Positions 9,401-36,048 are shown, counted from the stretch's first letter. The stretch is DNA of 64,000 nt from Phyllobates terribilis (GCF_046119375.1 NW_027362764.1:188604001-188668000), one strand, 5' to 3'. Notes: a model not told the origin generated them from the sequence alone. Made by a program: numbers and translations.

Positions 9401-12400
9401 CCGTGGAACTGCAAAACCACACTTCTGTTTCTCCAGCCTACACCAGACTATTTTTAACAGATATATTTGTGTCTGAACAATCAGGGAGACACTATTACAT
9501 TTTTTTTTTACGGCAAAAAATGCCCAAAGCAGGATAATAGAGATTTTTACCATGGAACAGCAAAACCACAGTTATAATTTACTGGTGTATACCAGACTTT
9601 TTTAAATATATATATTTGCGGCTGAACAGTGAGCGACACACTCAAACTGTTTTTTTTTAGATACCAATGGCCCAAAAGTGGATAATACTGAGGTTTGAAC
9701 CATTGAACTTCAAAACCACACTTCTGTTTCTCCAGCCTAGACCAGACTATTTTCAACAGATATATTTGTGTCTGAACAATCAGGGAGACACTATTACAGT
9801 TTTTTTTATGGCAAAAAATGCCAAAAGCAGGATAATAGAGATTTTTTTTACCATGGAACAGCAAAACCACAGTTATAATTTACTGGTGTATAGCAGACTT
9901 TTTTAAATATATATATTTGCGGCTGAACAGCGAGCGACACACTCAAACTTTTTTTTTAGATACAAATGGCCCAAAAGTGGATAATACAGAGGTTTGAACC
10001 GTGGAACTGCAAAACCACACTTCTGTTTCTCCAGCCTACACCAGACTATTTTCAACAGATATATTTGTGTCTGAACAATCAGGAAGACACTATTACAGTT
10101 TTTGTTTATGGCAAAAAATGCCACAAGCAGGATAATAGAGATTTTTTACCATAGAACAGGAAAACCACAGTTATAATTTACTGGTGTATACCAGACTTTT
10201 TTAAATATATATATTTGCAGCTGAACAGTGAGCGACACACTGAAATTTTTTTTTTTTAGATACCAATGGCCCAAAAGTGGATAATACAGAGGTTTGAACC
10301 GTGGAACTGCAATACCACACTTCTGTTTCTCTGGCCTACACCAGACTATTTTCAACAGATATATTTGTGTCTAAACAATCAGGGAGACACTAGTACAGTT
10401 TTTTTTATGGCAAAAAATGCCAAAAGCAGGATAATAGAGATTTTTTATTGTGGAACAGCTAAACCACAGTTATGATTTACTGGTGTATACCAGACTTTTT
10501 TAAATATATATATTTGCGGCTGAACAGTGAGCGACACACTCAAACTTTTTTTTTTAGATACAAATGGCCCAAAAGTGGATAATACAGAGGTTTGAAGCAT
10601 GGAACTTCAAAACCACACTTCTGTTTCTCCAGCCTACACCAGACTATTTTCAACACATATATTTGTGTCTGAACAATCAGGGAGACACTATTACAGTTTT
10701 TTTTTAGGGCAAAATATGCCAAAAGCAGGATAATAGAGATTTTTTACCATGGGACAGCAAAACCACAGTTATAATTTACTGGTGTATACCAGACTTTTTT
10801 AAATATATATATTTGCGGCTGAAGGGTGAGCGACACACTGAAACTGTTTTTTTTTAGATACCAATGGCCCAAAAGTGGATAATACAGAGATTTGAACCGT
10901 GGAACTGCAAAACCACTCTTCTGTTTCTCCAGCCTACACCAGACTATTTTCAACAGATATATTTGTGTCTGAACAATCAGGAAGACACTATTACAGGTTT
11001 TTTTTATGGCAAAAAATGCCACAAGCAGGATAATAGAGATTTTGTACCATGGAACAGCAAAACCACAGTTATAATTTACTGGTGTATACCAGACTTTTTT
11101 AAATATATATATTTGCGGCTGAAGGGTGAGCTACACACTGAAACTGTTTTTTTTTAGATACCAATGGCCCAAAAGTGGATAATACAGAGGTTTGAACCGT
11201 GGAACTGCAAAACCACACTTCTGTTTCTCTGGCCTATAACAGACTATTTTCAACAGATATATTTGTGTCTGAACAATCAGGGAGACACTAGAACAGTTTT
11301 TTTATTGCAAAAAGTGCCTAAAGCAGGATAATAGAGATTTTTTACCGTGGAACAGCAAAACCACAGTTATAATTTGCTGGTGTATACCAGACTTTTTTAA
11401 ATATATATATTTGCGGCTGAACAGTGAGCGAAACACTCAAACTGTTTTTTTTTTTTTTTTCAGATACAATTGGCCCAAAAGTGGATAATACAGAGGTTTG
11501 AACCGTGGAACTGCAAAACCACACTTCTGTTTTTCTGGACTACACCAGACTATTTTCAACAGATATATTTGTGTCTGAACAATCAGGGAGACACTATTAC
11601 AGTTTTTTTTACAGCAAAACATGCCAGAAGCAGTATAATAGAGATTTTTTACCATGGAACAACAAAACCACAGTTATAATTTACTGGTGTATACCAGACT
11701 TTTTTAAATATATATATTTGCGGCTGAACAGTGAGCGACACACTCAAACTGTTTTTTTTTAGATACAAATGGCCCAAAAGTGGATAATACTGAGGTTTGA
11801 ACCGTGGAACTGCAAAACACACTTCTGTTTCACTGGCCTCCACAAGACTATTTTCAACAGATATATTTGTGTCTGAACAATCAGGGAGACACTAGTAAAG
11901 TTTTTTTTATGGCTAAAAATGCCAAAAGCAGGATAATAGAGATTTTTTACCGTGGAACAGCAAAACCACAGTTATAATTTACTGGTGTATACCAGACTTT
12001 TTTAAATATATATATTTGCGGCTGAACACTGAGCGCCACACTCAAACTGTTTTTTTTTAGATACAAATTGCCCAAAAGTGGATAATAAAAAGGTTTCAAC
12101 CATGGAACTGCAAAACCACACTTCTGTTTCTCTGGCCTACACCAGATTATTTTCAACAGATATATTTGTGTCTGAACAATCAGGGAGACACTATTACAGT
12201 TTTTTTTTTTACGGCAAAAAATGCCAAAAGCAGGATAATAGAGATTTTTTACTGTGGAACAGCAAAACCACAGTTATAATTTACTGGTGTATACCAGACT
12301 TTTTAAAATATATATATTTGCGGCGGAACACTGAGCGCCACACTCAACCTGTTTTTTTTTAGATGCAAATGGCCCAAAAGTGGATAATACAGAGGTTTGA

Positions 12401-12560
12401 ACCGTGGAACTGCAAAACCACACTTCTGTTTCTCTGGCCTACACCAGATTATTTTCAACAGATATATTTGTGTCTGAACAACCAGGGAGACACTATTACA
12501 GTTTTTTTTACGGCAAAAAATGGCAAAAGCAAAACCACAGTTATAATTTAGTGGTGTATA
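6420..12560. repeat. ~299-bp tandem repeat (~20 copies) built from two related ~150-bp subunits
   Basis: ATGGCCCAAAAGTGGATAATAC at 6978, 7576, 7874, 8172, 8768, 9068, 9368, 9667, 9966, 10266 etc. Each unit has two AAACCACA..TA(C/T)ACCAGACT..TATATTTG..CTGAACA halves. Confidence 0.97.
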
Positions 12561-12571
12561 CCAGACTTTTT

Positions 12572-13806
12572 TAAATAAAGGATTTATTAAAAAAAAATGG
12601 CGTGGGGTTCCCCGTAATTTTAGTCTCTAGCGGAGGTTAAGCAGACGCCGGGGGCAGATGTTTGAAGCCGGGGAAGGGGGTAATACCCACGGAGCTTCCC
12701 AGGCTTCTAATATCAGCCCCCAGCTGAATACCTAGCGTTTACTATTAAAATGGGGGACCGCAAAAAAAAATGACGTGGGGTCCCCCCTATTTTAATAGCT
12801 AGCAAAGGCTAGGCAGACAGCTGGGGGCTGATATTAATAGTAGAATTCTCCTGCTCAAGCGGTGACGTCATTTGCCGGCACCGCATGCGCAGGAGAATTC
12901 TCCCACGTTGTCAGTGATGTGCATGAGGTGAGCTGAGTTTATTGGATATGAACTCGGTTCATCTGGATGCCGTCACAGACAGACACTGAGGAGCTTCACT
13001 GAGGAGCTTCTTAGTGTCTGCGGCATGGCAAGCTGGATGGCAGCGTTCTGCTGCGATCCAGCCTGTCATGTCAATGTAGCAGAGCTGAAGCCGTCCTGGG
13101 AATCATGGAAAGGTAAGGATGAGGTTGGTTTATTATTTTACCTTTATTGCAGGAGATCGTTGGCTTCAGCTGGAATGGGCATGACGGTAAGTAGAGTTTA
13201 ATTTAGAACATTAAAGAATTGTGTCTTTATTTCAATTAAAGGACTTTATTCTGGGTGTTTGTGTTTTTTTTTTAACTTTCACTATGGGGTTAGTAATGGG
13301 GGTGTCTTATAGACGCCTCTCCATTACTAACCTGGGCTTGATGTCAGCTGGCATTATAAGCTTACATCAACCCCAACCCTATTACCCTACTGCCACCGCT
13401 ACAGGGCAGTGGGAAGAGCGAGGCTAAGTGCCAGAATTGGCCATCCTATGGATGCGCCATTTTTGGGGAGGCTGACGGCTGGTGTTTCTAGCCTAGGAGG
13501 GGGCCAATATTCATGGCACCCTTCCTGGGCTATTAATATCAGCCCCCAGCTCTCTGCCTATCCTTTGCTAGCTATTAAAATAGGGGGAACCCCACGTCAT
13601 CTTTTTTTTGGGTCCCCCATTATAATAGTTAGTAAAGGCTAGGTGTTCATCTGGGGGCTGATATTAGTAGCCTGGGAAGCTCCTTGGATATTACCCCCTT
13701 CCCAGGCTTCAAACATCTTTCCCAGCCGTCTGCTTAACCTCCGCTAGAGACTAAAATTATGGGGAATCTCACGCCAATTCTTTTTTTAATCAATCCTTTA
13801 TTTTAA
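12572..13806. mobile_element. Foldback/MITE-like element with ~265-bp inverted arms
   Basis: 12577-12840 (TAAAGGATTTATT...CTGGGGGCTGATATTAATAG) is the imperfect reverse complement of 13529-13800. No TSD or superfamily determined. Confidence 0.7.
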
Positions 13807-13876: not shown

Positions 13877-15011
13877 TAGTGTTGAGCGAGCATGCTCGAC
13901 ACTGCTCGGAACTCGCCCGAGCATCTCACTACTTAGGATGTTTGGCGAGCACCGAGCATTTGCTGGTTACTCGGGCGGGAGCTCGGGTCTCCGCCCTGCA
14001 TGTTTGGCGCTCTTTACAGAGCCAATGAACATGCAGGGATTGCCAGCCAGACACTGTAATGCCGCAGCCATGTTGGTTGTGGGCATTATAGTGATTGACT
14101 GGCCGCACAGCGTCACCTCGAGTATTTAAAACCGGGCGCCGCCATCTTGGACACAGTCGCTCCGGATCAGACAGTGTAGGGAAAGTGCTGCTAAGCTAGG
14201 GAGAGATTTATACTGCGAAATAGGTAGTGTAGGGTCTCTAAAGCCTGCAAAATCAAACAAACAGTCCTTCTGAGGACGTATATCCATCCCAGATAGACAA
14301 GGACTTGCACGGGGATAGTTGCAAGTCTGCATCTTCTGATGCGGCAAGGATCAGTTCTGATGGGCACACTTTTAGGCAGTGACCTGGGTGTCAGAGATGC
14401 TTCCAGGGGTTTTCCCCATGCTGTCCTCATGTCTTTTCAGTACTGTATGCATGTGTCACACAGCACATGGCCAGATAAGGTTGTAAAATGTTAAAATGAC
14501 ATTTCCCGGTGAATGCATTTGCCACGGTTGAAAGCAATACAAAAGTGCAAAAACGCATAAAAAATGTTATTTGCGAACATAGCCCAAGGTGTGGAGGAGT
14601 ATTTTTGTTTTTGGTTATTTATTTTACCTTATACACAAGTCTTTACCCTGGAAAGGATATTCCTTAACATATTTCACAGGAAAACAGTTTCAGTTTAGTT
14701 TTTGAACGTTTTATTGTGAGCCCGTAAAAGTGGCTTAATACCTCTGACCACGTTGTTGACAGCAGTGACCTGGGGGTCAGAAATGCTTCCTGGGGCGATC
14801 CCCATGCTGTCCCCATGTTATTTGAGCACTGTCACTATCATTTTGGGCACTTTTTAGGCTTTCTACAGACTGCCGGGGGTGCCTTCGCAAAAATGCTCTC
14901 GTCTCCCATAGACTAACATTGGGCTCGTTGCTTGGGTCGAGCACCCGAGTATCACGGTGAGCTCGGCCCAAGCTTCGAGCACCCGAGCATTTTAGTGCTC
15001 GCTCAACACTA
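13877..15011 (+). mobile_element. Non-autonomous hAT element (MITE)
   Basis: Perfect 16-bp TIR TAGTGTTGAGCGAGCA / TGCTCGCTCAACACTA, clustered subterminal CCGAGCA/TGCTCG motifs, no transposase. The 8-bp flanks do not match (GTTTCTAT vs GTCACCTC). Confidence 0.8.
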
Positions 15012-16039
15012 GTCACCTCTGCTTCTGAGGATAAGTTTATCCGAGTCACCAGCCTCAGAAATCGCAGGTTAACTGCAGCTCAGATTAGAGACCAGGTCAA
15101 TGCCACACAGAGTTCTAGCAGCAGACACATGTCTTCAACAACTGTTAAGAGGAGACTTTGTGCAGCAGGCCTTCATGGTAAAATAGCTGCTAGGAAACCA
15201 CTGCTAAGGACAGTCAACAAGCAGAAGAGACTTGTTTGGGCTAAAGAACACAAGGAATGGACATTAGACCAGTGGGAATCTGTGCTTTGGTCTGATGAGT
15301 CCAAATTTGAGCTCTTTGGTTCCAACCACCGTGTCTTTGTGCGACGCAGAAAAGGTGTACGGATGGACTCTACATGCCTGGTTCCCATCGTGAAGCATGG
15401 AAGAGGAGGTGTGATGGTGTGGGGGTGCTTTGCTGGTGACACTGTTGGGGATTTATTCAAAATTGAAGGCATACTGAACCAGCATGGCTACCACAGCATC
15501 TTGCAGCGGCATGCTATTCCATCCGGTTTGCGTTTAGTTTGACCATCATTTATTTTTCAACAGGACAATGACCCCAAATACACCTCCAGGCTGTGTAAGG
15601 GCTATTTGACCAAGAAGGAGAGTGATGGGGTGCTACGCCAGATGACCTGGCCTCCACAGTCACCATACCTGAACCCAATCGAGAAGGTTTGGGGTGAGCT
15701 GAACCGCAGAGTGAAGGCAAAAGGGCCAACAAGTGCTAAGCATCTCTGGGAACTCCTTCAAGATTGTTGGAAGACCATTTCCGGTGACTACCTCTTGAAG
15801 CTCATCAAGAGAATGCCAAGAGTGTGCAAAGCAGTCATCAAAGCAAAAGGTGGCTACTTTGAAGAACCTAGAATATAAGACATATTTTCAGTTGTTTCAC
15901 ACTTTTTTCTTAAGTATATAATTCCACATGTGTTAATTCATAGTTTTAATGCCTTCAGTGTGAATGTACAATTTTTATAGTCATGAACATACAGAAAAAT
16001 CTTTAAATGAGAAGGTGTGTCCAAACTTTTGGTCTGTAC

Positions 16040-16041
<2 letters not shown>
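15012..16041 (+). mobile_element. 5'-truncated Tc1 element, DD38E (Intruder-type) transposase pseudogene with right TIR
   Basis: ORFs 15129-15542 and 15606-15878: WSDESKF, QQDNDPK, NPIE with 38 residues between D and E. One nonsense codon near 15540. Right end ...TCCAAACTTTTGGTCTGTACGG is followed by TA. Confidence 0.88.
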
Positions 16042-16087
<46 letters not shown>

Positions 16088-16099
16088 TATATATATATA
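16042..16099. repeat. (TA)n microsatellite
   Basis: Direct reading; one GAA interruption. Confidence 0.98.
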
Positions 16100-16993
16100 C
16101 AGTTGAAACCAGAAGTTTACATACACTATATAAAAAGACACATGTGCATGTTTTTCTCAATATCTGACGTGAAATCAGAATAAACCTTTCCCGTTTTAGG
16201 TCAATTAGGATTACCATTATTTTAAATACAGTTTTTGCCAAATGCCAGAATAATGAATGAGAGAGAATGTTTTAAGGCATTTTTATTACTTATGGCAAAG
16301 TCAAACGTTTACATACATTTCATTAGTATTTGGTACCATTGCCCTTAAACTGCATGACTGGGGTCAAAAGTTTGGGATACACTAAGATTACTATGCCTTT
16401 AAACAATTCTGGACTGCCCATATGATGATTATATGTGCTTAGAAGCTTCTGATAGCTTTTTGGCAACATCTGAGTTAATTAGAGACACACATTTGGATGC
16501 ATTTTAATGCACACTTGAAACACCTTCTTCTTTGTATAGCATCATAGGAAAGTCTAAAGAAATCAGCTAAGATATCAGAAAGAGAATTGTGGACCTTAAC
16601 AAGTCTGGTTCATCCTTGCGTACAATTTAAAGATATCTGAAGGTGCCTTGTTCATCTATACATACAATTATATGCAAGTACAAACAAGATGGGAATGTCC
16701 AGCCATCATACTGCTCAGGAAGGAGACGGGTTCTATGTCCCAGAAATGAACGTGCTTTGGTCCAACATGTGCATATCAACCAAGGACAAAAGCAAAAGAC
16801 CTTGTGAAGATGATGGCGGAAGCTGGTAAGATTGGGTCAATAACCAGAGTGAAACAAGTACTGTATCAACATGGGCTGAAAGGCCACTTTGCCAGGAAGA
16901 AGCCATTACTCCAAAATAAATCATAAATAAGCCAGATTAATGTTTGTCCTGTGGTCTGATGAAACTAAAATTGAACTTTTTGGGCATAATGAC

Positions 16994-18062: not shown

Positions 18063-18720
18063 ATGACCATCATTACGTTTGGAGGAAAAAGGGAGAAGCT
18101 TGGAAACCTAAGAACACCATCCCAATTGTGAAACACGGGGGTGGCAACATCATGTGTTGGGATTGTTTTGCTGCAGGAGGGACAATTGCACTTCACAAAA
18201 TAGATAGCATCTTGAGTAGTGTTGAGCCACCCCCGTAGTGTTCGAGTTCGGTTCGGTTCGTCGAACACCCGTGTGTTCGCCGAACTGTTCGTCGAACTGT
18301 TCGTCGAACACCTTCGAACACCGTTAAAACCAATGGAAGGCAAACAAAAACACATAGAAACACATAGAAAACACCTTCAAAGGTGTCCAAAAGCTGACAA
18401 ACTGCTCTGAAGACACAACTAACACATGGAAAAGTGACAATTACATATAGTCATGCGAAAAGAAAAGAGGTGGAGGAGTAAAAGGAGGGGGAGACACAGA
18501 TATAGGCATGTCATGCCCTTCTAAAATCCAAAAAGTGAGAAGCCGACACGTTCAGTCCGCTCCTGCCCGTGCCACCTCCGTGTCGCCGGGTTTGTGCCAG
18601 AGCCGCGGTGAACCCTGACGGCCAACCCCCTCTCCCAATACTGGTGCCTGTCCGCTGGTGGGTGGAGCGAGCCCCCCTGTGGTGGAGGCAGCTCTAAGCT
18701 TTTTAATTTAAATTGTCTCT

Positions 18721-18986
18721 CTAATTTGAATGAATACACTTTAAATCCATTTACAAGGATCTATTGGAGGGCAAGTCTCATGCCAGCAGCCGCGTAATTC
18801 CAGCTCCAGTAGCGTCCACTAAAGCTGCTGCAGTTAAAAAGCTTTTATAAGGATCGAGCTCGGCTGTCCACCGCAAGGCATCCTACTGCCAGTCCCAGCC
18901 CCTATGCCTTGGGGTGCCTCCTGATGCTCTTCACTGAGTATCCCGTGGTCCCGAAGCATTTCCTTTGAAAAAATTAAGTGTCAAAA
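18721..18986 (+). rRNA. Diverged 18S rRNA fragment (pseudogene) inside hAT copy 1
   Basis: CACTTTAAATCC..AGGATCTATTGGAGGGCAAGTCT..TGCCAGCAGCCGCG-TAATTCCAGCTCC..GCTGCAGTTAAAAAGCT..CCCGAAGC..TTTGAAAAAATTA matches the conserved 18S core (the 'GTGCCAGCMGCCGCGGTAA' region) and the start of V4, recognised from memory. Confidence 0.9.
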
Positions 18987-19094
18987 CTACAGGTGGTGTA
19001 GCTTGCTTAACAGCCGGGATAATCCGCTGACTAGCAGACACTGCTACTAGGCACAAAGTATTTCCTGGGCTAGATGCAGTTAAAAATTTGTAAT

Positions 19095-20915
19095 TAGATA
19101 CTCTCGTTGGATGTTGAGAAAGCATTCCATAGAGTCTCCTGGCACGCCATATATGATTCTCTTAAAAAACTTGGGGTAGGGGTCTAGGGGACCCTTTTAT
19201 AGCCAAAATCACGGCCCTGTATCGCAATACGTCACCTAGGCTGAAGATAAATGGAACTGTATTACCCTGAGGGCTCGGTTGCTACAGAGGAATTGCACCT
19301 CACCCAGAGGTGTGATATCTCACTCTCAGGTAAGGATGGAGTGTGGATCAGGACCCGACACCTGCATGCATTACACCACATTGCCGTGGGGCAGGGCGAC
19401 CAATATGCCCCTGAGATGGGCACGACAGTCCCTGTCCCTGGCTGGAGTGGGGGGAGGGAACACTGAGGAAGGGGAACCCTGTAGTGCAGGAGCAGGGAGG
19501 AAGCAGTTCCTGGGTGCATTGAGAAGGGAGTATAAAAGGTGGGCACCATCTTAGTTCAGTGCAGAGAAGTCTGAGCAGAAGTGGCAGGGAGCAGGGGCTC
19601 TGCATGAGCTCTGCTCCGGAGGCGGGCCTAGTAACAGAGGCCCAGGCCTGGAAGAGGGAGAAGGAAGGAAGAGGAGCGGAGAAGGCTCCAGGAACGAGGA
19701 ACGAAGGGATCCCAGGGGTGCGGACGGGTGAGTCTCCACCACACGCCCGAATCCACCTGCGTGGAGGGGTCAGGCCAAAGGGGGAGACCGGTCCCCGAAA
19801 CTAGTGGAGGCAGGAAACGACCCTCAGCTAGAAACAGGAGGCTGTGACATTTTATGTGGCGCAGCCCCTCGCTACACCCGCTAGGAAGGCACCACATAGG
19901 GTCAGGGAAACTGGCGCCAAGTTTACCAAGAGGAGGCCCGAGGCAGCCGGACAGAAGGGTTGGTAAGTAAGGCCAGACAAAGGACACACAAAGGGGGTCC
20001 TGTGAAGCGCTCCAAAGTTATCTGGGAGTTGTCTGAGCCCCTCACCTGGTGAGCACAGTACGACGTGGGCAGCCGTTACCTGCAGACGTGGTCTGGATAA
20101 TAAGAACTGTGAGTAAAGGCCCTGGACTGCATCACTGACTCCGTGTCGTTACTGCTGCTGCCCTGCACCATCACCCCCATCCTCCGCTTACACTGCCCTG
20201 AGGCTATACTCCTCCCATGGGGAGTTATGCTACGCTCTGCTGCACCCACAACACCAGCCTCAGCGGTCTGCCCCGGAGCGGCGGTTCACTCTGACCGGAA
20301 TCCACGGGTGGCGTAGTCGGACATTTAAACATCAAAACCACATAAATAGTTCCGCCACTGGTTTGACCGCCCTGAGCCACGGAACCGGGTCGCTGCCACG
20401 GAGACTACAACCACCAGCATCCACCAAAAAGGGTCCGGCTCCGGATGTCCCAAGGCCCAGGGGGCGCGTCAGAACATTTTCATCACCTTTCACAATCACC
20501 AATGGGACAAGGCAGGGATGTTCTCTGTCCCCTCTCTTATACATCCTAGTGACGGAGCACCTGCTCTCATCAATTCGCCATAACCCCAATATTAGGTGGA
20601 TTGAGGTGGGAGGCACCGAGTACAAGTGCTCTCTATTTGCTGATGATGTCCTAGTATATATCACTCAATCACATATATCCATCCATGCTGTTATGGCTGA
20701 AATAGATCACTTTGTTACATGGTCAAATTTTAAAATCAATGCAGCGAAGTCTGAGGCCCTCGATGTCTCCCTCCCCAAATCCATATAGGATTCCATCCAG
20801 TCCAACTTTCCCTTTGCCTGGCCCTCACAGGGTATCAAATACGTAGGAATTCCTATTCATAGAGACCTCTCCCATCTATGTTATCTTAATTTTGGGCCCT
20901 TTATTGAACAACTCC
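19095..20915 (+). pseudogene. L1/Tx1-clade RT fragment split by an LTR-like insert (19095-19228 + ~20471-20915)
   Basis: LSLDVEKAFHRVSW..ITALY on the left; FSSPFTITNGTRQGCSLSPLLY..LFADD..FKINAAKSEAL..IKYVGI on the right. Confidence 0.88.
19229..20470 (+). mobile_element. LTR-like segment (~1.24 kb) inserted in the L1 fragment
   Basis: GC-rich non-coding block interrupting the L1 frame, with TATAAAAG (~19531), AGTAAA (~20112) and an end GGGGGCGCGTCA. Left terminus and TSD not recognisable. Confidence 0.5.
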
Positions 20916-20993
20916 ATACAGACCACGGTTGGCAAGTTAGAACTGTAAGATTCACTACGTGAACCACTGGTGTTTTGTGGAAAAGCACATGTA
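20915..20993 (-). pseudogene. Short diverged duplicate of hAT transposase 3' coding sequence
   Basis: CACGGTTGGCAAGTT..GAAAAGCACATGTA is near-identical to 23257-23324. Confidence 0.85.
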
Positions 20994-22369
20994 CACTGTG
21001 TTCCAAATTATTATGCAAAAAGTGTTTAGGAGTGATAAGGGAAGAATTTGTTTGTTTGTCAGTTAAACTCATTGATGGTGATGTGTGTCAGGGCTCTTTA
21101 TATCACTGTAAGCAATTGCAGACACCTGTGCTAATTAGTTTGGCAGGTGTGTCCAATGAAAGGCAAGACTACTTAAGAAGGCTGTCTCACATTACTAAGC
21201 AGCCTACATTTTCTGCCAAAATGGGAAAGAAAAAGGATGTGTCGGCTGCTGAGAAGCAACAAATTGTGGAGTGTTTAGGTCAAGGCATGACTACAGTCAA
21301 CATTGTGCGATGATCAGGATGAAGTGTCTTGGCAATCAAGAAGTATGTAGCTGATTCACAGTACACACGTGTGCGTGCTGATAAGGGCAAATTGAGGACT
21401 CTTTCCTACAGGCAATTACGTCAGGTTAAAAGAGTAGCGGCAAAAAAGCCTTGTCATAGCAGCAGACAAGTTTTTGAAGCTGCTGGTGCCTCCAACGTCC
21501 CCCGAACAACAAGATGCAGGGTCCTTCAGAGGTTTGCAGCTGTGCATACGCCATCCTGTCGACCTCCTCTATCCACTTCACACAAGCAGAAACGGCTCCA
21601 GTGGGCCAAACATTACATGAAGACTGATTTCAAAACTGTTTTGTTCACGGATGAGTGCCGAGCAGCGCTCGATGGTCCAGATGGATGGAGTGGAGGATGG
21701 CTGGTTGATGGACACCCCACGCAAACACGGCTACAGCGCCAACAAGGACGAGGTGGAGTAATGTTTTGGGCTGGAATCATGGGGAGAGAGATTGTCGGCC
21801 CCTTTAGGATCCCTGAAGGCGCTAAAGATGAACTCCATAATGTATGTGGATTTTCTCAAACAGCACTTCCTGCCATGGTTCAAGAAGAAGAACCGTGTAT
21901 TTCACAGCAAGATCATTTTTTTGCATGATAATGCACCATCTCATGCTGCACATTAAACATCTGCATCTCTGGCTGATATGGGCATAAAAGGGTACAAACT
22001 TATGGTGTGACCCCCATGCTCCCCTGACCTCTACCCCATTCAGAACCTCTGGAGCATCATCAAAAGGAGTGTCTATGATGGCGGGAGGCAGTTCACATCT
22101 AAGCAACACCTCTGGGAGGGTATTCTGTCCTCATGCAAAACAATTGAAGCAGAAACCATCCAAAACCTGACAAATTCAATGGACGAGAGAGTTCAGAAGC
22201 TCCTTTCGAACAAGGGGTCCTATGTGAAAATGTAACATCACCTAGAATAAAGTTTTGAGTTGAAAACTGTTTGATTTCAGTTTCTAATAACCTGCTAATG
22301 CTTATAATTTCAAAAATGACCATTTTTTTGGTCTTTATTAAAATGAAAAGGTTGATCGAAAAGTTTGGG
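20994..22369 (+). mobile_element. Tc1 element, DD37E (TRT-type) transposase pseudogene; left TIR present, right TIR lost
   Basis: TA|CACTGTGTTCCAAATTATTATGC. MGKKKDVSAAEKQQI at 21221, FTDECR, HDNAPSH, PDLYPIQ (catalytic E to Q) with 37 spacing. Contains stops and a frameshift. Confidence 0.85.
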
Positions 22370-22492
22370 GGATCTAAGAGTGTGGCAACCCAGTAGTCAT
22401 GATTACTTCGAATTCTGACAATATGAGGGTCATGTTGCAGGTAGTGCAGCAAGAAGGCACTTATGTGTCTTGCGCATCTCGGAGCCCCAAAA
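22370..22492 (-). pseudogene. Second diverged duplicate fragment of hAT transposase
   Basis: SAFLLHYLQHDPHIVRIRSNHDYWVATLLDP versus ..HDPRIVRIRNNPDYWVATLLDP in the main ORF. Confidence 0.85.
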
Positions 22493-22499
22493 TTATTTT

Positions 22500-22760
22500 C
22501 CGGGCTAGATGCAGCTAAAAATTATTATTAATTTTAAATCTGGTGGAGCTTAGTATAGATGGCCTAATAGGATCAGTGCTGCACACTGCTACAAAGCCCA
22601 AATTATTTTCCAGCCAAGATACAGATAAACATGATTAGTAATTTTAAATCTGGTGGAGCTTATTATAGATGGCCTAATAGAATCAGTGCTGCACACTGCT
22701 ACAAAGCCCAAATTATTTTCCAGCCAAGATACAGATAAACATGATTAGTAATTTGAAAGC
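22500..22760. repeat. ~120-bp tandem repeat (2+ copies) 3' of the hAT transposase
   Basis: AAATCTGGTGGAGCTTA..GGCCTAATAG..CAGTGCTGCACACTGCTACAAAGCCC repeated; mirrored at ~39800-40050. Confidence 0.9.
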
Positions 22761-22802
22761 TTAAAACGGTTGGTAGGGTGATTTTAACCAATCATCCATC
22801 TT

Positions 22803-25800
22803 TTACTCTCCCCAGGATGACACAGGGGTAGAAAAGTCGTTTCGGATTCATGATTTGTTCATCTTTATGAACGTGTGTATGTCTACATTATCAGTGGAGA
22901 GCCGCGTGCGCTTATCTGTCAGCACACCACCAGCAGCGCTGAACACACGTTCAGACAGAACGCTGGCTGCGGGGCATGACAAGATGTCCAAGGCGTAAGT
23001 GGCTAGCTCCGGCCATTTATCCAGATTGGAAGCCCAAAAAGAGCAAGGGTCCAGTGACACAGTCATGTCTTCAATGTTTATTTGGAGATACTCCTGTACC
23101 ATCGTCTCTAGGCGTTGACTATGTGTCAGACTTCTTGTCTCCTGTGGCCTTGCAAAGGATGGGCTAAAAAAGTGGTGAAATGATTGCGCAAAATTGATGT
23201 TACCAGCAGATACTGTGGTTCTGTAATGGTTTGAGTGCTGAACACTTGACGGTCCCACGGTTGGCAAGTTGGAACTGTGAGATTCACTACGTGCACCACT
23301 GGTGTTTTGTGGAAAAGCACATGTAAGATTCTACAACAGTCTCTGCTGATACTCCTGCATGCGTGCATCCCTTTCTATGGCAGGAATAATTTCTGCAAAT
23401 TTACTTTTGTACCGGGGATCTAACAGTGTGGCAACCCAGTAGTCAGGATTATTTCTAATTCTCACAATTCGAGGGTCATGTTGCAGGTAGTGCAGCAAGA
23501 AGGCACTCATGTGTGTTGCGCATCCAGGAGCACCAAGTCCCTGTTGTGTTGGTGGTGAGGTAACAATCATGCTTCCTTCCTCTGTCCTCTCCCCCCAACC
23601 TCGCACAACAGAAATGTGATCAAGGTCTCCCGCATCTGATGAGTCTTCCATCAGTTCGTCCTCCACTTCTTCCTGGGCTCCTGCACCTTCCTCACTAGTT
23701 TGGCTGCTACCATGCGCCCTGGTAAAACCATCTCCACCACCCTCACATGCCTGCCACCTTGGTGCTGCCAACCGTCTGGACCTTGCAGATGTTAGCCCTT
23801 CCGCATACAACTCCTCCTCCTCTACTTCCTCCACCTCCTCTTGTGCCACCACCTGACTCCGAATTCTGTTTAACATGTGCTCCAGCATGTAAATCACCGG
23901 AATAGTCATGCTGATAATGGCATCGTCAGCACTAAACATCTTCGTCGCCATTTCAAAACTGTGCAGAAGGGTGCATAGGTCCCTGATCTGAGACCACTCC
24001 TCCAGCGTGATTTGCCCCACGTCTGGATCTCGTTGGCCCAGGCTATACGTCAGAACGTATTGCACCAGGGCTTGTCGGTGCTGCCACAGTCGCTGCAACA
24101 TGTGCAGAGTTGAATTCCACCGGGTAGGCACATCGCATTTTAGCCGGTGAAGTGGCAGGCCCAACTACTTCTGTAGAGATGTAAGTCGCTGAGCTGCGGG
24201 ATGCGAACGGCGGAAGTGAGCACACAGCGACCGTGCCCTCTGCAGAAGGCCATCTAGTCTGGGATAGTGGGCTAAAAATTGCTGGACAACCAGGTTCAAC
24301 ACGTGAGCCATACAAGGCACGTGTGTGACATTGCCCCGGCGAAGTGCTGCACCCAGGTTTGCAGCATTGTCGCACACGGCCTTCCCTGGTTTCAGGTCCA
24401 GTGGAGACAACCATTCATGAAATTGGTTCTCCAGAGCTGACCACAACTCCTCAGCTGTGTGACTCACATTTCCCAGACATTTCAAAGTAAAAACCGCCTG
24501 ATGACGTTGAGCCCTACTGCCAGCATAGTAAGGAGGTGTGCAGGATCCCTTCTGCGCAGTTAGAAAGCTTGTGGCATGACCAGACAGGCTTTGGGTGCAG
24601 GTGGAAGACCGAGAGGAGGTTGAGGAGCCAGAAGCAGTGGAGGAACTTTGACATAAAGAGGATTGACGCACAACTCGTGGGGATGGCAAGACTTGGACAG
24701 AAGCCCCTTGTCCTGCTGTCACCATAGTTACCCAGTGCCCAGTCAGCGACATGTAACGCCCCTGTCCATGCCTACTCGTCCAAGTGTCTGTGGTGAAATG
24801 CACCCTGTCACACACAGAGTTTCTCAAAGAAGCGGTGATGTTGTGTGCGACATGCTGGTGGAGCGCAGGCACACCTTTCTTTGAGAAGTAGTGCCGACTG
24901 GGCATCTGGTACTGGGGCACTGCGACGGACATAAGGTCTCGAAAATCCTCTGTGTCCACCAGGCGGAAAGGCAGCATTTCTGTAGCCAAGAGCTTGCAGA
25001 TGGTGAAATTCAACCTCTTAGCTTTCTCATGGCTAGGAGGAAATGGTCTTTTACTTGTCCACATCTGAGGGACCGAGGGCTGGCTATTGTGCTTAGACGG
25101 GGTTGATAAGGGTGTCCCCGGCAAACTGCCGGTCTGTGAGGAAGATGCAGGCGGACATGTTAGGTTGCCTTGATCCAAAGGTGGTGCTATCGATATCGGA
25201 CAGCGCTCAACACCAGCTGGTGTTATCACCTCCAAAGAAAATGATGACCTGCCAATCACGCTGGCTGTTGCGGGTAAAGAGGTGGCAGGTCTGCGCCCCA
25301 AAACAGGTGTGACTGCTGTCCCCCCAGTCACAGAGAATGAAGAGGCCGCGGATGCACAAGATATGGCAGACGGTGGTTGGCCCGGCCGGCTAGGCCGCAT
25401 TGTAGCACACTGAGCTTCCCACTGCAACTTATGCTTCATGTCCATGTGCCGGTTCATGCATGAAGTACTCAAACTATGTATTTTTTGGCCTCTACTTAGC
25501 TTTTGCTGACAAATGTTACAGATAACACGAGTTGGGTCATCTTTATCGATCTGAAAAAATGCCCAGGCTATGCAAGGCTTAGCACCCATGCGACCTGAAG
25601 AGCCACCACGACTTGTGGTGAGAGGCAGAGTTGTGTTTGAGGATGCAGTTGTTGACGTGCTTCCAGTACTACGTCTCTGTCCAGGAAGGCGCAACCTGAC
25701 CTCGTCGTCACTAGCATCTTCCTCCACCTCCTCTGCTGACCTCATCTCTTGGCTGACTGTGGGTTGACAGTAAGTGGGATCTCCAACCTCATCATCATCA

Positions 25801-26504
25801 CCCTGTGCGTTATCACACCCGTCGTCCTCAGAGCCAACCTGTTCCTGCCCTGACAAAAAACTAAAGTTGTCGCTCCAATCAGGTATTTGAGTCTCATCAT
25901 TGTCTTCCTCATTGTCTCCACCAACAGGAGTTACAGTTTGGGAATGAGGGTCTACATTATGGTCAGAACCTTCTGCGTCTGGTCCTGGATCCGACTCATA
26001 AAGATTCTGGGCATCAGTGCAGATCATTTCCTCGTCTGGATTCACAGAAGCGCTGGAGTCGACCTCTGATTCCCAGGCTATAGTATGAGTAAACAGCTCT
26101 GCAGACTCAACCATCTGTTCTACCTCATACTCAGACGGGCAGCTGGAGATTTGGGAGCTGTGAGGAAGCAAGTGCGATTGGGGTGACACCTTTGAGGACT
26201 GGAGTATTTGTGATGTTGAAGTTGATGTGGAGGAGAGCCCACTTAAAGGAGCACTTGATATCCGTTGAAGCACCTGCTGTTTTTGTGCCTCATCTGGAAT
26301 TTGTAGCGATTGGCGTGGCCGTAAGAAAGGGATCTTATCACATTGTCCGCTAAAAGAAGTAGACATTTTAGTTTGGCTGGAAGATGGTCTTTCTTCTGCA
26401 GATGTTACTGTTGCTTTAACACCTACCCCACGGACACAACCTTTTTTCCCCTTCCCAACACGCCTATTCCCCTTTCCACCAGCAGCAGGCCTTTTTCCAC
26501 TCAT
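22803..26504 (-). pseudogene. hAT family-2 transposase, full length, three nonsense codons
   Basis: Collinear with 36049-39750. Stops TAG 24165-67 (TCG in copy 2), TAG 23331-33 (CAG) and TGA 22848-50 (TGG). Confidence 0.95.
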
Positions 26505-26624
26505 TTTGGTGGTTAACTAATTCACAACTCTGGAGTTGTTTGCACAAAAAAACAATGGATGGTAACCAAGCAGAGCTAAGTGGCCAAACTGTGGTATTAG
26601 GCCAAAACTATTGGCTGGGTTAGA

Positions 26625-27345
26625 TGCAGAAAAAAATTATATTCAATTTGCAACCTGATGGAGGTCAGTATAGATGGAGTAATAGAACAAGTCCCACACA
26701 CAGCTAGAAGCCCAAATATTTTTTCAGAGCTAGATGCAGATAAAAATTATTTTTAATTTGCAACCTGATGGAGGTCAGTATAGATGGACTAATAGAGAAA
26801 GTCCCACACACTGCTAGAAGGCCAAATATTTTTTCAGAGCTAGATGCAGACAAAAAATTATATTCAGTTTGCAACCTGATGGAGGTCTGTATAGATGGAT
26901 TAATAGAACAAGTCCCACACACAGCTAGAAGCCCAATATTTTTTCAGAGCTAGATGCAGAAAAAAATTATATTCAATTTCCAACCTGATGGAGGTCAGTA
27001 TAGATGGTGTAATAGAACAAGTCCCACACACAGCTAGAAGGCCAAATATTTTTTCAGAGGTAGATGCAGAAAAAAATTATATTCAGTTTGCAACCTGATG
27101 GAGGTCTGTATAGATGGATTAATAGAACAAGTCCCACACACAGCTACAAGCCCAATATTTTTTCAGAGGTAGATGCAGAAAAAAATATATTCAGTTTGCA
27201 GCCTGATGGAGGTCAGTATAGATGGACTAATAGAGAAAGTCCCACACACTGCTAGAAGGCCAAATATTTTTTCAGAGCTAGGTGCAGAAAAAAATTATAT
27301 TCAATTTGCAACCTGATGGAGGTCAGTATAGATGGACTATTAGAA
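26625..27345. repeat. ~110-bp tandem repeat (~7 copies) 5' of the hAT transposase, copy 1
   Basis: CAACCTGATGGAGGTC..AAGTCCCACACAC..GCTAGATGCAG every ~110 bp. Confidence 0.93.
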
Positions 27346-28872
27346 TGATGCTATGCCCAAAAGATTTTACTTCACTAGGTGCAGTAAAAAAATTGGTATT
27401 CTATACACAGGTGGTATATCTTGCAACACAGATAGGCTACTCCACTGACTAACACACTCTGCAATAGGCCAAAAAGGATTAGCTTTGCTAGATTCAGCCA
27501 AATGCTGTGAAAAAAACTTGCACAGCACTGGCACAGACCTGCCTGGCAAAAACTGATAGGAACTGATGTAACCTAGTCCTGAAAAGGACTCCAATTACAA
27601 TTAGTCTTTACTCCCACAACCTATCTATTTAAGAGCACAGACCTGCCTGATAAAAGTCGTAGGAAATGCTGTAACCTAGTCCTTAAAAGGACTGCAATCA
27701 CAACTATTCCCTACTCCCAAGCTATCTGTAGATTTGTGCGAAAATTGGCTTGAAATTAACAAGGTATAGCGCACACAGCAACAGCGGTGCCGTCTAACAC
27801 GCAGCTGCAGCAGTGAGAAAATGGTGGCGACGGGGAAAATGGCTTGGTCTTATAGGGCAAGGACATGTGACATACACTGCCAATGACACATGCCCTTGCT
27901 TGTGTGAAAAAAAGCACTTCGCTCCGTGTGTGCGCTGCTGATAGGCTGACAGATTGCACCTCCCCACTGTAAATGCGGGAAAGAGAAAAAAAAATGGAGT
28001 TCTTCATTATTCCTGCAGAGATCCATCCCCTGCCCCTCCCCCCATCCCGCTGTACACTCAAACTGCGTATTAACATTAATTTTCATCATTACTGAGAAAA
28101 AATCCAGTTATGATTTTGGTGCACGAACAGTTATCGAACATAACCTCGAACAGCCGAATTTTTCTCAAATCGTTCGTGTTCGCCGAACGGCTCGAACACC
28201 GCCCAAAACAGCTCGAATTTGAGATTGGCGAACAGTTCGAGTAGAACAACGCTCATCTCTAATCTTGAGAAAAGAAGATTATGTGGCAATACTGAAGCAA
28301 CATCTTCCAAATAGCCAGGAAGTTAAAGCTTGGGCGGGAATGGGTCTTCCAAATGGACAATGAACCGAAGCATACTGCCAAAACGGTAACAAAGTGGCTT
28401 AAGGATAACAAAGTCAATGTTTTGGAGTGGCCATCACAAAGCCCTGATCTCAATCCTATTGAAAATGTATGGGGAAAGCTGAAAAGGCAGGTGCGAGCAA
28501 GGTGACCTACAAACCTGGATCAGTTTCACCAGTTTTGTCAGGAGGAATGAGCCCAAATTCCGACCAACTATTGTGAGAAGTTTGTGGAAGGATATCCCAA
28601 ACTTTTGACCCTAGTCATTCAGTTTAAGGGCAATGGTACCAAATACTAATGAAATGTATGTAAACTTTTGACTTTGCAGTTAGTAATAAAAATGCCTTAA
28701 AACATTCTCTCTCATTATTTTGGCATTTGGCAAATATTAAAAATTATGGCAATCCTTATTGACCTAAAACGGGAAAATGCAAATAAAAATCAAATTTATG
28801 CAATGTGATTTTCTTGATTATTTTTTGGATATTCTACCTCTCAATGTTAAAATTAACCTACCCTTTAATGTG

Positions 28873-28875
<3 letters not shown>

Positions 28876-28926
<51 letters not shown>
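28876..28926. repeat. (TA)n microsatellite
   Basis: Direct reading. Confidence 0.98.
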
Positions 28927-28929
<3 letters not shown>

Positions 28930-29087
28930 TACAGACCAAAAGTTTGGACACACCTTCTCATTTAAAGATTTTTCTGTATTTTCATGACTATGAAAATTGT
29001 TCATTCACACTGAAGGCATCAAAACTATGAATTAACACGTGTGGAATTATATACTTAACAAAAAATTGTGAAACAACTGAAAATATG
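28927..29087 (+). mobile_element. Isolated left TIR of the DD38E Tc1 family
   Basis: TA|CAGTACAGACCAAAAGTTTGGACACACC... is the reverse complement of 15880-16041. Confidence 0.88.
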
Positions 29088-29089
29088 TT

Positions 29090-29134
29090 ACTCACTGAGG
29101 AACCGGACAGGACGTCCGTGAAACGCATATGAAT
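29090..29134 (+). ncRNA. Degenerate type I hammerhead ribozyme (PLE-type remnant)
   Basis: ACTCA-CTGAGGA-(CGGAC..GTCCG)-GAAA-CGCA-TA-TGAAT. The usual CGCG is CGCA and stem I has a mismatch. Confidence 0.55.
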
Positions 29135-29239
29135 GTAGTTTATTAATAAAAAATATTTCCATTAACCCTTTAATCACTGGATCATCTTTTCATACGGAGG
29201 AGCGCGGATATCTATACACCTTTCTTCTGCCATATCCAC

Positions 29240-29594
29240 CTGTTGACGTAACTTTGCTAAACTGTCTCCTCACATCATTTTGGGAGACTATGAAATCAGT
29301 CCATTCATCCCCCAATATCAATATTGCTGATCGTTTCCTAGCTCCATCCCCCATCCCTGTTAGTTCTGCACATGTATTGCTAAATCTGTTGAAAAACTCA
29401 GCCATGTCCAGTCCCCCATCCGTCTCATCTGGCCTCACCTGAAACCCAGTTATAAGTTTCATTCCCGAACACACCTCCCTGGAGTTATTATGTGACATTT
29501 TATTTTCTAGTTTTAATCTAAAAGCCTCCCGGGCATTTTTTATTTTGTTTTTCAAGTCTTGTTGTATCATTTTAATTTTCTCTTTATCCCTCAT
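29240..29594 (-). pseudogene. LINE ORF2 fragment (Rex1/Babar-like EN-RT linker)
   Basis: QQDLKNKIKNAREAFRLKLENKMSHNNSREVCSGMKLITGF..FFNRF..VSQNDVRRQF resembles this linker; recognised from memory. Confidence 0.55.
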
Positions 29595-29639
29595 TTTAAA
29601 TGCTATTTTTTTCCTATTTGGTAAGTGTTTTAATTCTAA

Positions 29640-30010
29640 AATGAAAAATGTCAGAACATCTGCTCATGAGCTGAATCTCAAGAAAATGTGGGTCAAACAG
29701 CAAAACAATGACCCAAAGCACACAAGTCGTTCTTCAAAAGAATGGTTAAAGATAAATAAAGTTAAAGTTTTGGAATGGCCACACCAAAGTCCTGACCTTA
29801 ATCCTATAGAAATGTTGTGGAAGGACCTGAAGCAAGCTGTTTCTGGGGAAAAAACACACCAACATAACAGAGTTGAAGTTGTTTTGTATGGAGGAAATGG
29901 GGTAGTTGATGTTCAGGACTAATCAACAATTATTGGAAATATTTAGATGTAGTTATTTCAGCACAAGGAGGTTATACCAAATGCTGAAAGCAAAGGTTCA
30001 CATACTTTTT
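29640..30010 (+). pseudogene. Tc1 transposase 3' fragment
   Basis: [41 protein letters not shown]. Confidence 0.85.
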
Positions 30011-33447: not shown

Positions 33448-35224
33448 ATGCCCAGTTGGATTGCAAGCAGAAATTTCACACACTGTTTAAATTTTGTGCA
33501 ACTCTGTGCAAATAAAGGTGTGGCCTCCTTTTTCTTTAAGCTGGACATTATATTCATGTAGTTCCCCATGTCTGGGTGTCCATTGGCCAGGTCTCAGTCC
33601 TTCTCAGCCCTTACCCACATGTATGTCACATGACAAATGGTAAGGTTTTAATACTAGAGGTTAGGACCGTCCCGAATAAGGTCACCATGACGTGGTGGGA
33701 TAGCTTATACATTTTTTTTTATCAAAATTATGTTAACTAAGCACCCTGTATTATTTTATGCACTATTGCTATTTATTTATATACTGTAGGGTATTTGCTT
33801 ATTATGTTTCATCTGTTTAGTGGCCATTGTGAATATGCGCCTATACCACTGCATGCATACCAATTTATATTCCAGTTAATCTCTTTAGGTTGTTTTTTTC
33901 CTACAAAAAACAACTATGTATATCTCTGCAATGGAGTCATGAAGAGAAGCAGAATCAGGGGAGCTCAGGGATTTTTACCTTCCTTCCCCAGGGAGCATTG
34001 CCTACCCTATATGATTCCATATGCCAGCTCCATGATTATTCACTACTTTGCATACTACAAGGGAAATCTCAATTTCTGTACTCTTCCATCTGGTCCTATT
34101 CTCCCCCTGTAAATGCAAAGCCACAAAAATAGTGTAAGTATATAATTCCAGTGACCCTTTAGTGATCAATTTATTCCATTATTAAGGGCTCAATTAAAGC
34201 CTCAATTGAATGCTCAGTTATTACTATTATTACACCCATGAGTGCTGAATTAATGCAGCCACTTAGTCTTAGTGTACCTTTATTGCTGCCATTCAGAAGT
34301 AGAGATGAGCGTTGTTCTACTCGAACTGTTCGCCAATCTCAAATTCGAGCTGTTTTGGGCGGTGTTCGAGCCGTTCGGCGAACACGAACAATTTGAGAAA
34401 AATTCGGCTGTTCGAGGTTATGTTCGATAACTGTTCGTGCACCAAAATCATAACTGGATTTTTTCTCAGTAATGATGAAAATTAATGTTAATACGCAGTT
34501 TGAGTGTACAGCGGGGTGGGGGGAGGGGCAGGGGATGGATCTCTGCAGGAACAATGAAGATCTCCATTTTTTTTTTCTCTTTCCCGCATTTGCAGTGGGG
34601 AGGTGCAATCTGTCAGCCTATCAGCAGCGCACACACGGAGCGAAGTGCTTTTTTTCACACAAGCAAGGGCATGTGTCATTGGCAGTGTATGTCACATGTC
34701 CTTGCCCTATAAGACCAAGCCATTTTCCCCGTCGCCACCATTTTCTCACTGCTGCAGCTGTGTGTTAGACGGCACCGAGGTTGCTGTGTGCGCTATACCT
34801 TGTTAATTTCAAGCCAATTTTCGCACAAATCTACAGATAGCTTGGGAGTAGGGAATAGTTGTGATTGCAGTCCTTTTAAGGACTAGGTTACAGCATTTCG
34901 TACGACTTTTATCAGGCAGGTCTGTGCTCTTAAATAGATAGATTGTGGGAGTAAAGACTAATTGTAATTGGAGTCCTTTTCAGGACTAGGTTACATCAGT
35001 TCCTATCAGTTTTTGCCAGGCAGGTCTGTGCCAGTGCTGTGCAAGTTTTTTTCACAGCATTTGGCTGAATCTAGCAAAGCTAATCCTTTTTGGCCTATTG
35101 CAGAGTGTGTTAGTCAGTGGAGTAGCCTATCTGTGTTGCAAGATATACCACCTGTGTATAGAATACCAATTTTTTTACTGCACCTAGTGAAGTAAAATCT
35201 TTTGGGCATAGCATCATTCTATTA

Positions 35225-35935: not shown

Positions 35936-36048
35936 CAGCCAATAGTTTTGGCCTAATACCACAGTTTGGCCACTCAGCTCTGCTCGGTTCCCATCCATTG
36001 TTTTTTTGTGCAAACAACTCCAGAGTTGTGAATTAGTTAACCACCAAA

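Follow-up and report, generated by a model that had tools for sequence, protein, structure and literature searches.

Introduction

Autonomous hAT transposons laden with foreign DNA have a vertebrate precedent in hobo_AC of Anolis carolinensis, an element of 9–15 kb that is present in 290 copies and carries fragments of other transposable elements (TEs) as cargo (PMC3014272; what we take from this and the other papers cited comes from parts of each). Here we describe a hAT family of the poison frog Phyllobates terribilis, two copies of which, A and B, lie in a stretch of 64,000 nucleotides (GCF_046119375.1 NW_027362764.1:188604001-188668000), referred to throughout as the window. We consider it highly probable that this autonomous hAT was amplified in waves, each seeded by a master copy with one passenger more than before 3′ of the transposase gene.

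The frog family resembles hobo_AC in that its lineages vary by gain and loss of cargo, its elements recombine with one another, and divergence is about 1%. It differs in scale, the 290 hobo_AC copies being outnumbered by non-autonomous elements whereas the frog hAT has at least 40,000 gene-bearing copies, and in the route by which cargo arrived; the authors of PMC3014272 preferred captured genomic DNA as the source, rather than insertion into the element, whereas in the frog insertion is shown for one passenger, a long terminal repeat (LTR), and indicated for another, a Tc1 element. Neither ribosomal DNA (rDNA) cargo nor a targeted long interspersed element (LINE) is mentioned in the examined parts of PMC3014272, and the frog hAT has both. 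An earlier note on the window had regarded large capturing hATs as best known from plants, against which hobo_AC stands as a precedent, and had likened the frog element to Pack-type transposons. As defined in PMC8903248, Pack-TYPE elements (Pack-MULE, Pack-CACTA, Pack-hAT) are non-autonomous carriers of coding-gene fragments. The frog hAT does share with them the movement of foreign DNA between terminal inverted repeats (TIRs), but it departs from both features, since it encodes a selected transposase and all of its assigned cargo consists of TE, self or rDNA fragments, with no host coding-gene fragments.

Sequence-specific non-LTR elements with a target inside a DNA transposon are also known, Tx1L of Xenopus targeting Tx1D and the crocodilian Tx1-Mar targeting Mariner-N4 (PMC4494074). 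In those cases the transposon itself supplies the target, whereas the frog LINE described below uses a captured piece of host 18S and occupies real rDNA too; no 18S target appears in the main text of PMC4494074. R2, R8 and R9 insert at fixed sites of rRNA genes in the rRNA orientation, R8 in 18S, and the authors of PMC5035012 did not find R2 in amphibians. Poison-frog hATs have been given as class totals, 5.1% of reads (PMC12208295) and 3.9% of an assembly (PMC11152451), and recent anuran genome expansion has been credited mainly to Ty3 activity (PMC12822217). No description of the hAT family or of the 18S-specific frog LINE was found in open-licence papers, a search that stopped short of Repbase, Dfam and supplements, and the repeat-library supplements of PMC12208295, PMC11152451 and PMC12822217 may already contain these families. 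A long, cargo-laden vertebrate hAT has a precedent in hobo_AC; what is new here is the scale of the copy number, the readable layering of the cargo, and the relocated niche of the LINE.

Two copies of a composite hAT in the window

Copies A and B were found exactly at the coordinates, on the strands, and between the different perfect 8-bp target-site duplications (TSDs) that the earlier note had given.

18217-28261, minus strand: hAT copy A, 10,045 bp, with the fuller cargo and a transposase gene with three premature stops
18209-18216 and 28262-28269: TSD of copy A, ATCTTGAG
34300-43758, plus strand: hAT copy B, 9,459 bp, with an intact transposase gene
34292-34299 and 43759-43766: TSD of copy B, TTCAGAAG
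35217-35932, plus strand (B), and 26599-27345 (A): 5′ array of 108–110-bp units
39795-40064, plus strand (B), and 22487-22761 (A): 3′ array of 110-bp units, matching the 5′ array in family and orientation
43440-43758, plus strand (B): subterminal region at the 3′ end, comprising GTTCG-rich motifs and the TIR

The TIRs are 11 bp long and imperfect (TAGAGATGAGC and TAGTGTTGAGC), with the consensus TAG(A/T)G(A/T)TGAGC, which is compatible with the YARNG motif quoted in PMC3014272. Aligned to one another, A and B mismatch at 158 of 9,470 columns, or 1.7%; their near-identity holds, albeit at a slightly higher figure than the roughly 1% first judged by eye. Copies vary in length partly by steps of 110 bp. 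The flanks, compared over 1 kb on each side, are unrelated except for a single 16-bp match, so that the shared flanks that would point to a segmental duplication are missing, and on a tree built from the last 1.2 kb of the transposase gene A does not pair with B as its sister.

Beyond the gene, the cargo runs in the order 110-bp units, transposase duplicate 1, an antisense Tc1, transposase duplicate 2, an antisense L1 reverse transcriptase (RT) fragment split by a solo LTR, a partial 110-bp unit, an 18S piece and a GC-rich tract. The block is common to both copies as reported, but about 580 bp of A (20564-21143) are absent from B, comprising the Tc1 5′ end, transposase duplicate 2 and part of the L1 fragment.

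Copy number, transposition and age

Exact patterns were used for counts, since similarity searches scored 40 candidates each and are unsuited to counting; reversed-pattern controls gave 0 matches in each genome pattern search. Genome-wide, the junction of the LTR with the L1 fragment has 40,642 exact matches, the hAT 5′ end 50,234, a transposase motif 59,024, and the Tc1 junction 29,715, the last being an undercount because this motif is exact in just 16 of 40 sampled copies. The same site empty of the LTR has 4,124 matches and an older-type transposase motif 6,243. Within the first 26.4 Mb of assembly sequence C1, 65 of the 83 junctions have an exact transposase motif no more than 12 kb upstream on the same strand (4.5–5.4 kb upstream in 56 of them), which indicates that most junctions are whole elements. 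At 10.1 kb apiece, 40,642 copies amount to 3.9% of the 10.57-Gb assembly, with a fair range of 3.5–5%. The earlier note was right that the block moves as a unit within a transposase-encoding hAT, whose open reading frame (ORF) of 1,233 amino acids is intact in B.

Other cargo-bearing copies with TSDs of their own do exist, as the earlier note had anticipated. Among the 20 best matches to B's 3′ end (L001-L020; loci are numbered with an L), ten have both ends and perfect, all-different TSDs; in six more the 5′ end is not in the fetched stretch, one has a short flank, one has non-matching flanks, and two hold a TSD-bounded copy nested in another element. At the 11 loci examined with the LTR-empty site, perfect TSDs were seen five times and a TSD with one mismatch once. 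The insertion sites are biased, with T at position 2 in 19 of 22 TSDs, A at position 7 in 18 and A at position 4 in 16. The Ac family of hAT elements has the target consensus nTnnnnAn, and the TSD set fits this at T2 and A7, with A4 in addition.

Family members are also found nested inside one another (L006, L092, L013 and L047), and L006 and L092 have an identical TSD at an identical position of the transposase gene.

Both window copies belong to the most numerous of several cargo lineages, lineage I (see below). Mean pairwise divergence within it is 0.96% for the transposase, 1.02% for Tc1, 0.89% for L1, 1.65% for the LTR and 1.48% for 18S, and thus gene and cargo are equally diverged within the last wave; eight less biased copies gave 0.9% and 1.1%. 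The corresponding values within lineage II are 2.5–5.3%. At the anuran substitution rates of PMC12822217, lineage I (about 0.5% from its ancestor) would be roughly 1.5–5 million years (Myr) old and lineage II roughly 5–15 Myr.

The transposase and its conservation

The transposase genes of the two copies have the following features.

36049-39750, plus strand: transposase ORF of B, 1,233 amino acids, intact
Residues 313-359 and 1140-1214 of the B protein: zf-BED and dimerisation domain
Residues 571, 711, 731, 795 and 1184 of the B protein: motifs TTDTWT, CDNAAN, CMAH, RWNS and SERVFS, respectively
22803-26504, minus strand: transposase of A, with stops at codons 780, 1058 and 1219

The B protein matches PF02892 (BED) and PF05699 (hAT dimerisation) in Pfam, and Hermes is its sole relative in PDB (E 1e-17). 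Its nearest long named relative is fish ZBED4 (21%), and poison frogs supply the closest named proteins across short stretches. BED finger, DDE, CxxH and RW motifs, and C-terminal dimerisation domain were all located, as in a transposase of the hAT superfamily, in which the DDE, CxxH and RW motifs have catalytic roles.

A full frame of at least 1,227 codons is present in 11 of 26 sampled lineage I copies and in 1 of 14 lineage II copies, and the majority sequences of lineages I, II and III have zero stops and zero gaps. The ratio of amino-acid-changing to silent differences per site (pN/pS) is 0.33–0.39 between lineage majorities, compared with 0.76–0.88 for changes confined to individual copies (Fisher test, p 0.024 with I-II on its own, and 0.003 when pooled with II-III). 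As judged from these sequences, purifying selection kept the transposase between amplification waves. Low ratios between lineages, combined with full-frame copies, are the pattern expected of master copies moved by their own protein, and the family is, on this comparative evidence, autonomous, with an intact and selected transposase.

Origins of the cargo

The cargo pieces that the earlier note had listed were verified by domain, Rfam and alignment, and are placed as follows.

40064-40186, plus strand (B), and 22368-22490 (A): transposase duplicate 1, 123 bp, 88–90% identical to the element's own gene
20923-20993, minus strand (A): transposase duplicate 2, 71 bp, 96% identical to the element's own gene, missing in B
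20994-22355, plus strand (A): TRT-type Tc1, antisense to the hAT, dead
40199-41411, minus strand (B): the same Tc1, its 5′ end removed by the 580-bp deletion
20472-20922, plus strand (A): 3′ part of the L1 RT fragment, of which B retains 41410-41502 only
42717-42876, minus strand (B), and 19098-19257 (A): 5′ part of the L1 RT fragment
19258-20471, plus strand (A): solo LTR, 1,214 bp, TG...CA ends, 4-bp TSD GTTC/GAAC
41503-42716, minus strand (B): solo LTR, TSD at 41499-41502 and 42717-42720
42989-43257, minus strand (B), and 18717-18985, plus strand (A): 18S rRNA piece, about 270 bp, Rfam RF01960
43275-43436, minus strand (B), and 18539-18699, plus strand (A): 'GC-rich tract', a piece of rDNA 5′ external transcribed spacer (5′ETS)

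The cargo Tc1 has D-37-E spacing, but the E position is Q in A and B and the gene is broken by stops and frameshifts, in keeping with the view that the cargo pieces are old. Free relatives, 93–95% identical to it, are about 1.57 kb long, like XtTRT (1,573 bp with a 202-bp TIR; PMC5630946), with which the D-37-E spacing is also shared; length and a GRKK-like region agree with TRT, by eye only. The cargo copy is dead and one TIR is gone, yet its junctions (29,715 exact) outnumber free Tc1 TIR ends (6,052). Its 5′ TIR adjoins a TA within transposase duplicate 2, and about 224 bp of its 3′ end, including the TIR, are missing; the Tc1 would have jumped into the TA of this duplicated transposase piece and then lost its other end.

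Of the six free relatives fetched, five are palindromic non-autonomous elements, and the free relatives at L097-L101 are mostly of this kind, made of two inverted 3′ halves. At L057 a 2.3-kb deletion joins the transposase gene to its own duplicate 2, as recombination between them would give.

The solo LTR interrupts the L1 RT piece (RVT_1, E 1.4e-14). Because a lineage with the empty site exists and the LTR has a 4-bp TSD, the LTR inserted into an L1 piece already resident in the hAT. The TG...CA ends together with the 4-bp TSD would suit a solo LTR of a Ty3/Gypsy-like element. The only two-LTR relative seen (L067, 68–74% identical) has a primer-site-like motif and a cold-shock-domain ORF, with no pol. 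This element, at L067 3509-8261, is non-autonomous, with 1,176-bp LTRs that are 99% alike, a 4-bp TSD and the cold-shock-domain ORF as its single one; LTR sequence related to it recurs in or beside hAT copies at L047, L050, L057 and L090.

The GC-rich tract had been recorded as such and is indeed present; its identity, supplied since, is host rDNA 5′ETS, which it matches at 76–81% (in lineage IV, about 380 bp at 81–85%). Since the 5′ETS and 18S pieces are collinear with host rDNA, with about 1 kb deleted in between, the two are one trimmed rDNA piece. Compared with uninterrupted host 18S, at rDNA loci located via 5.8S, the cargo 18S is 84–86% identical at most loci and 79% at two with a deletion. 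A chance match was considered for the second half of the 18S piece and rejected, as host rDNA aligned through it. The L1 piece has neither a poly-A tail nor a TSD, and the rDNA piece has no TSD and no tail; L1, rDNA and self pieces may be filler from template switching in gap repair, or trimmed insertions.

Nested cargo lineages

Four nested cargo states were recognised; lineage IV carries rDNA only, lineage III adds L1, lineage II adds the transposase duplicates and Tc1, and lineage I adds the solo LTR. The earlier note held that the cargo was assembled once, but transposed elements exist that lack the LTR, the LTR and Tc1, or the LTR, Tc1 and L1, and the gain was therefore stepwise. Lineage I, with 40,000–50,000 genome copies, is the type of both window copies. 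Lineage II has Tc1, L1 and rDNA with a clean single GTTC at the LTR position, and its copies are bounded by TSDs, i.e. are transposed elements. It was reached from 20 transposase matches without the exact junction, of which 6 are LTR-free, 8 LTR-bearing and 6 interrupted before the site.

The 20 older-type transposase matches gave three members of lineage III (L1 and rDNA without Tc1, and with other passengers), two of lineage IV, 14 of a further lineage V, and one mixed case (L078); L067 also belongs to lineage III, and L083 was placed there from its upstream block alone. Lineage V has an N-truncated, inverted transposase between hAT ends beside a DIRS-like piece, its TSDs are perfect in all three copies that were extended, and a second, different solo LTR inside the gene is common to 8 of its 14 copies. 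Older lineages carry longer L1 and 5′ETS pieces. The proposed search for cargo junctions found them in abundance, but a cargo-free sister, also to be looked for, was not found among the 20 junction-lacking and 20 older-type transposase matches.

The DIRS-like piece of lineage V (L074-L077, L080, L081 and L084-L091), which is non-autonomous, is of tyrosine-recombinase/RNase H type, and the 5′ ends of several lineage V copies are 94–97% similar to those of lineage I, suggesting that lineages have swapped ends.

On the transposase tree (50 rows, 10 of the 26 lineage I copies), lineage I is one clade (100/97) inside a clade of I and II (93/100). Contigs of organism F contain the LTR-free joint, with transposase at about 95–97% and no LTR depth; this shows the LTR-free form to be present, rather than the LTR form to be absent, and agrees with the proposed order of gain. 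An LTR-bearing composite in organism C (about 99%, 87 contigs, depth about 60, with 6 partial RNA reads) was read as trace DNA and not counted.

Under the wave-by-wave reading, a hAT with a BED finger and Ac-like ends would move by cut-and-paste using its own transposase, and successive waves would each stem from a master copy with one newly added passenger in its non-coding zone. The cargo would be neutral and hitchhiking, and copy number may have risen through jumps coupled to replication and repair from the sister chromatid. In consequence, the captured 18S target is used by a site-specific LINE.

An 18S-specific LINE in rDNA and in the hAT cargo

The 18S piece contains the target base of this LINE. 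Four hAT loci and one real rDNA unit break at one 18S base into the 3′ end of the LINE, and in two full copies, of 7.7 and 9.1 kb, 18S continues beyond the far side.

L079/L102, L082/L103, L062, L078, L094, L113-L125 and L137-L156: loci with the 18S LINE

ORF2 has APE, RT and zf-RVT domains behind an ORF1, a layout shared with L1 and hence non-diagnostic for the Tx1 clade. Its closest named relatives are frog proteins (46–75%), with no named Tx1 reference, in both cases among the best 120 of 191 matches. R2-lineage elements use a restriction-like endonuclease, whereas the frog LINE has an APE domain; a fixed rRNA-gene site, entered in the rRNA orientation, is common to both.

The LINE fills the 18S site in 7 of the 20 rDNA loci that cover that base, L095 and L123 being excluded because the site is not covered, and LINE/18S junctions have 714 exact matches in the genome. 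In one LINE subfamily, all of the best 100 of 129 3′ ends are flanked by the 18S target, which exceeds the >20% of like flanks by which PMC4494074 recognises target specificity, and 95 of those 100 lie outside the C10 array. All 20 dispersed copies checked, taken at intervals down the list, sit in hAT-type 18S; three of their hosts are LTR-bearing, six have L1 without the LTR, and 11 show neither in the 0.9 kb seen. LINE copies of different hATs are 76–78% alike, and are thus independent insertions; at least three subfamilies exist at this likeness, and no clear TSD was seen. This APE-type LINE inserts at one 18S base both in rDNA and in the hAT-borne piece, and most assembly copies of the one subfamily counted lie in hAT-borne 18S. 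We lean towards the view that one autonomous lineage added about 0.4–0.5 Gb in a few Myr and that an undescribed APE LINE specific to 18S came to live mainly in its rDNA piece.

Dispersed rDNA units with identical 5.8S scores lie at C2:601.49 Mb, C3:819.58, C5:334.24, C7:167.8 and 168.5, C10:2.45, C12:320.73 and C15:27.08. Two that were fetched have a common 18S variant and are 97–98% alike across about 10 kb.

Alternative explanations

Cargo, or its latest layer, might have aided the hAT, through an LTR promoter or terminator, a chromatin or nucleolar signal of the rDNA, or a degraded LINE target, and so have made lineage I successful. Copies of lineage I exceed those of lineage II by about 10 to 1, and the rDNA piece was retained in lineages I-IV while being trimmed; moreover, within a few bases of the LINE site, 1 bp is deleted in 25 of 25 covering lineage I copies and 6 of 14 lineage II copies, and lineage I accounts for just 3 of the 20 sampled LINE-hit hAT copies. 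However, divergence of the cargo between lineages is at least that of the gene (I versus II: transposase 3.0%, L1 2.9%, Tc1 4.3%, 18S 6.9%), and copy B lost 580 bp of it. Lineage I is also younger, with less time for LINE hits, and one of its three LINE-hit copies shares its upstream 18S variant with the sub-lineage that bears the deletion. The 24 amino-acid-changing substitutions between I and II could equally account for its success. We regard help from the cargo as unlikely, and give no better chance to the narrower proposal that lineage I became dominant partly because the 1-bp deletion shielded the LINE site.

Less probable again is one-step capture, the view of the earlier note and, for hobo_AC, of the authors of PMC3014272, in which the hAT engulfed a pre-joined array of Tc1, L1, LTR and rDNA and the shorter lineages arose by deletion. 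The L1 and rDNA pieces look as captured DNA would, with neither TSD nor poly-A; deletions are common in the family, and the transposase tree leaves its root open. Yet LTR-free copies show a single clean GTTC with no deletion scar, and are about three times more diverged, with lineage I nested in I+II. Furthermore, the Tc1 ends at a TA within duplicated sequence of the hAT gene, which cannot predate the hAT, and the LTR-free joint of organism F comes with no LTR depth. One-step capture is thus refuted for the LTR and Tc1, and is possible for L1 and rDNA only.

Slightly more doubtful still is mobilisation mainly in trans by another hAT, the element's own ORF being a passenger. Lineage V, with its inverted and N-truncated transposase, moves and has perfect TSDs, showing that this occurs in the family, and 15 of 26 sampled lineage I copies are without a full frame. 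Against this stand the uninterrupted majority sequences of lineages I, II and III, with their pN/pS of 0.33–0.39, and the failure to find a cargo-free sister in the 20 transposase matches without the exact junction. Finally, a segmental duplication or assembly artefact is refuted, because even though the copies are 6 kb apart and the chance of at least two per 64 kb at mean density is about 3%, their TSDs differ, their flanks are unshared, they are not sisters in the tree, the family has tens of thousands of copies with best matches across many large contigs, and an independent run had a summed depth of about 2,000,000 on the element against 10–54 in three of four flank bins.

Several points weigh against the account of successive waves and its LINE sequel that we prefer. 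The samples are non-random, L001-L020 being the best matches to B's 3′ end and the others the first matches on C1, and among less biased lineage I copies the intact frame is found in two of seven. Pooling of I-II with II-III in the Fisher test is not fully independent, and pN/pS for lineages IV and V is only 0.5–0.6. The tree does not settle its root among III, IV+V and I+II (bootstrap not settled, 0.891), so the absence of L1 in lineage IV could be a loss. Lineage III is represented by two full copies, and lineage IV by one full and one deleted copy; no sampled copy belonged to a lineage that has the transposase duplicates and lacks Tc1, or to one without rDNA. Collapsed rDNA arrays in the assembly may inflate the hAT share of LINE copies. 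Neither an empty allele nor a new insertion was seen; at the 3′ flank of B the insertion is present in the single further DNA run from this organism that was compared.

Further features of the window

An older hAT relative, 65–70% identical in DNA, lies at 3020-5685 (minus strand), with 1-2856 and 6484-12531 to its sides, and is found also at L061. It too is flanked by large tandem arrays with units of 52, 133 and 299 bp, and a 90%-identical inverted copy lies immediately upstream of the window. At 46041-55785 there is an inverted duplication (47065-50124 versus 52093-55152, 99%) containing a long RT-like ORF at 47216-49762 that is Penelope-like with no Pfam match, and a Penelope-like piece with GIY-YIG is located at 61139-62416. 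The segments 13877-15011, 14961-15878, 29122-29922 and 12570-13806 hold an element of 1.1 kb whose ends read TAGTGTTGAGCG, a further two Tc1 fragments, for which 15880-16379 is inverted relative to 28593-29088, and a short inverted-repeat element.

Implications

Full-length, gene-bearing 10-kb copies of a single cut-and-paste family make up about 4% of this 10.6-Gb vertebrate genome. For annotation this means that 'recent LTR' sequence totalling about 50 Mb and 'recent Tc1' sequence totalling about 55 Mb, as well as L1 and 18S matches in the tens of thousands, are the hitchhikers of one hAT and will mislead repeat landscapes and possibly 18S probes, primers and rRNA-read filters. With about 4 kb of cargo moved at such a rate, this hAT is, speculatively, a candidate gene-transfer tool. 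Because the sequence of cargo acquisition can be read from the lineages, capture can be distinguished from nested insertion. A captured target would let a site-specific LINE spread genome-wide with its specificity kept, a proposal testable by counting; if true, an amphibian has a retrotransposon that targets rDNA, and the cargo of a different transposon has carried the niche of this retrotransposon beyond the rDNA array.

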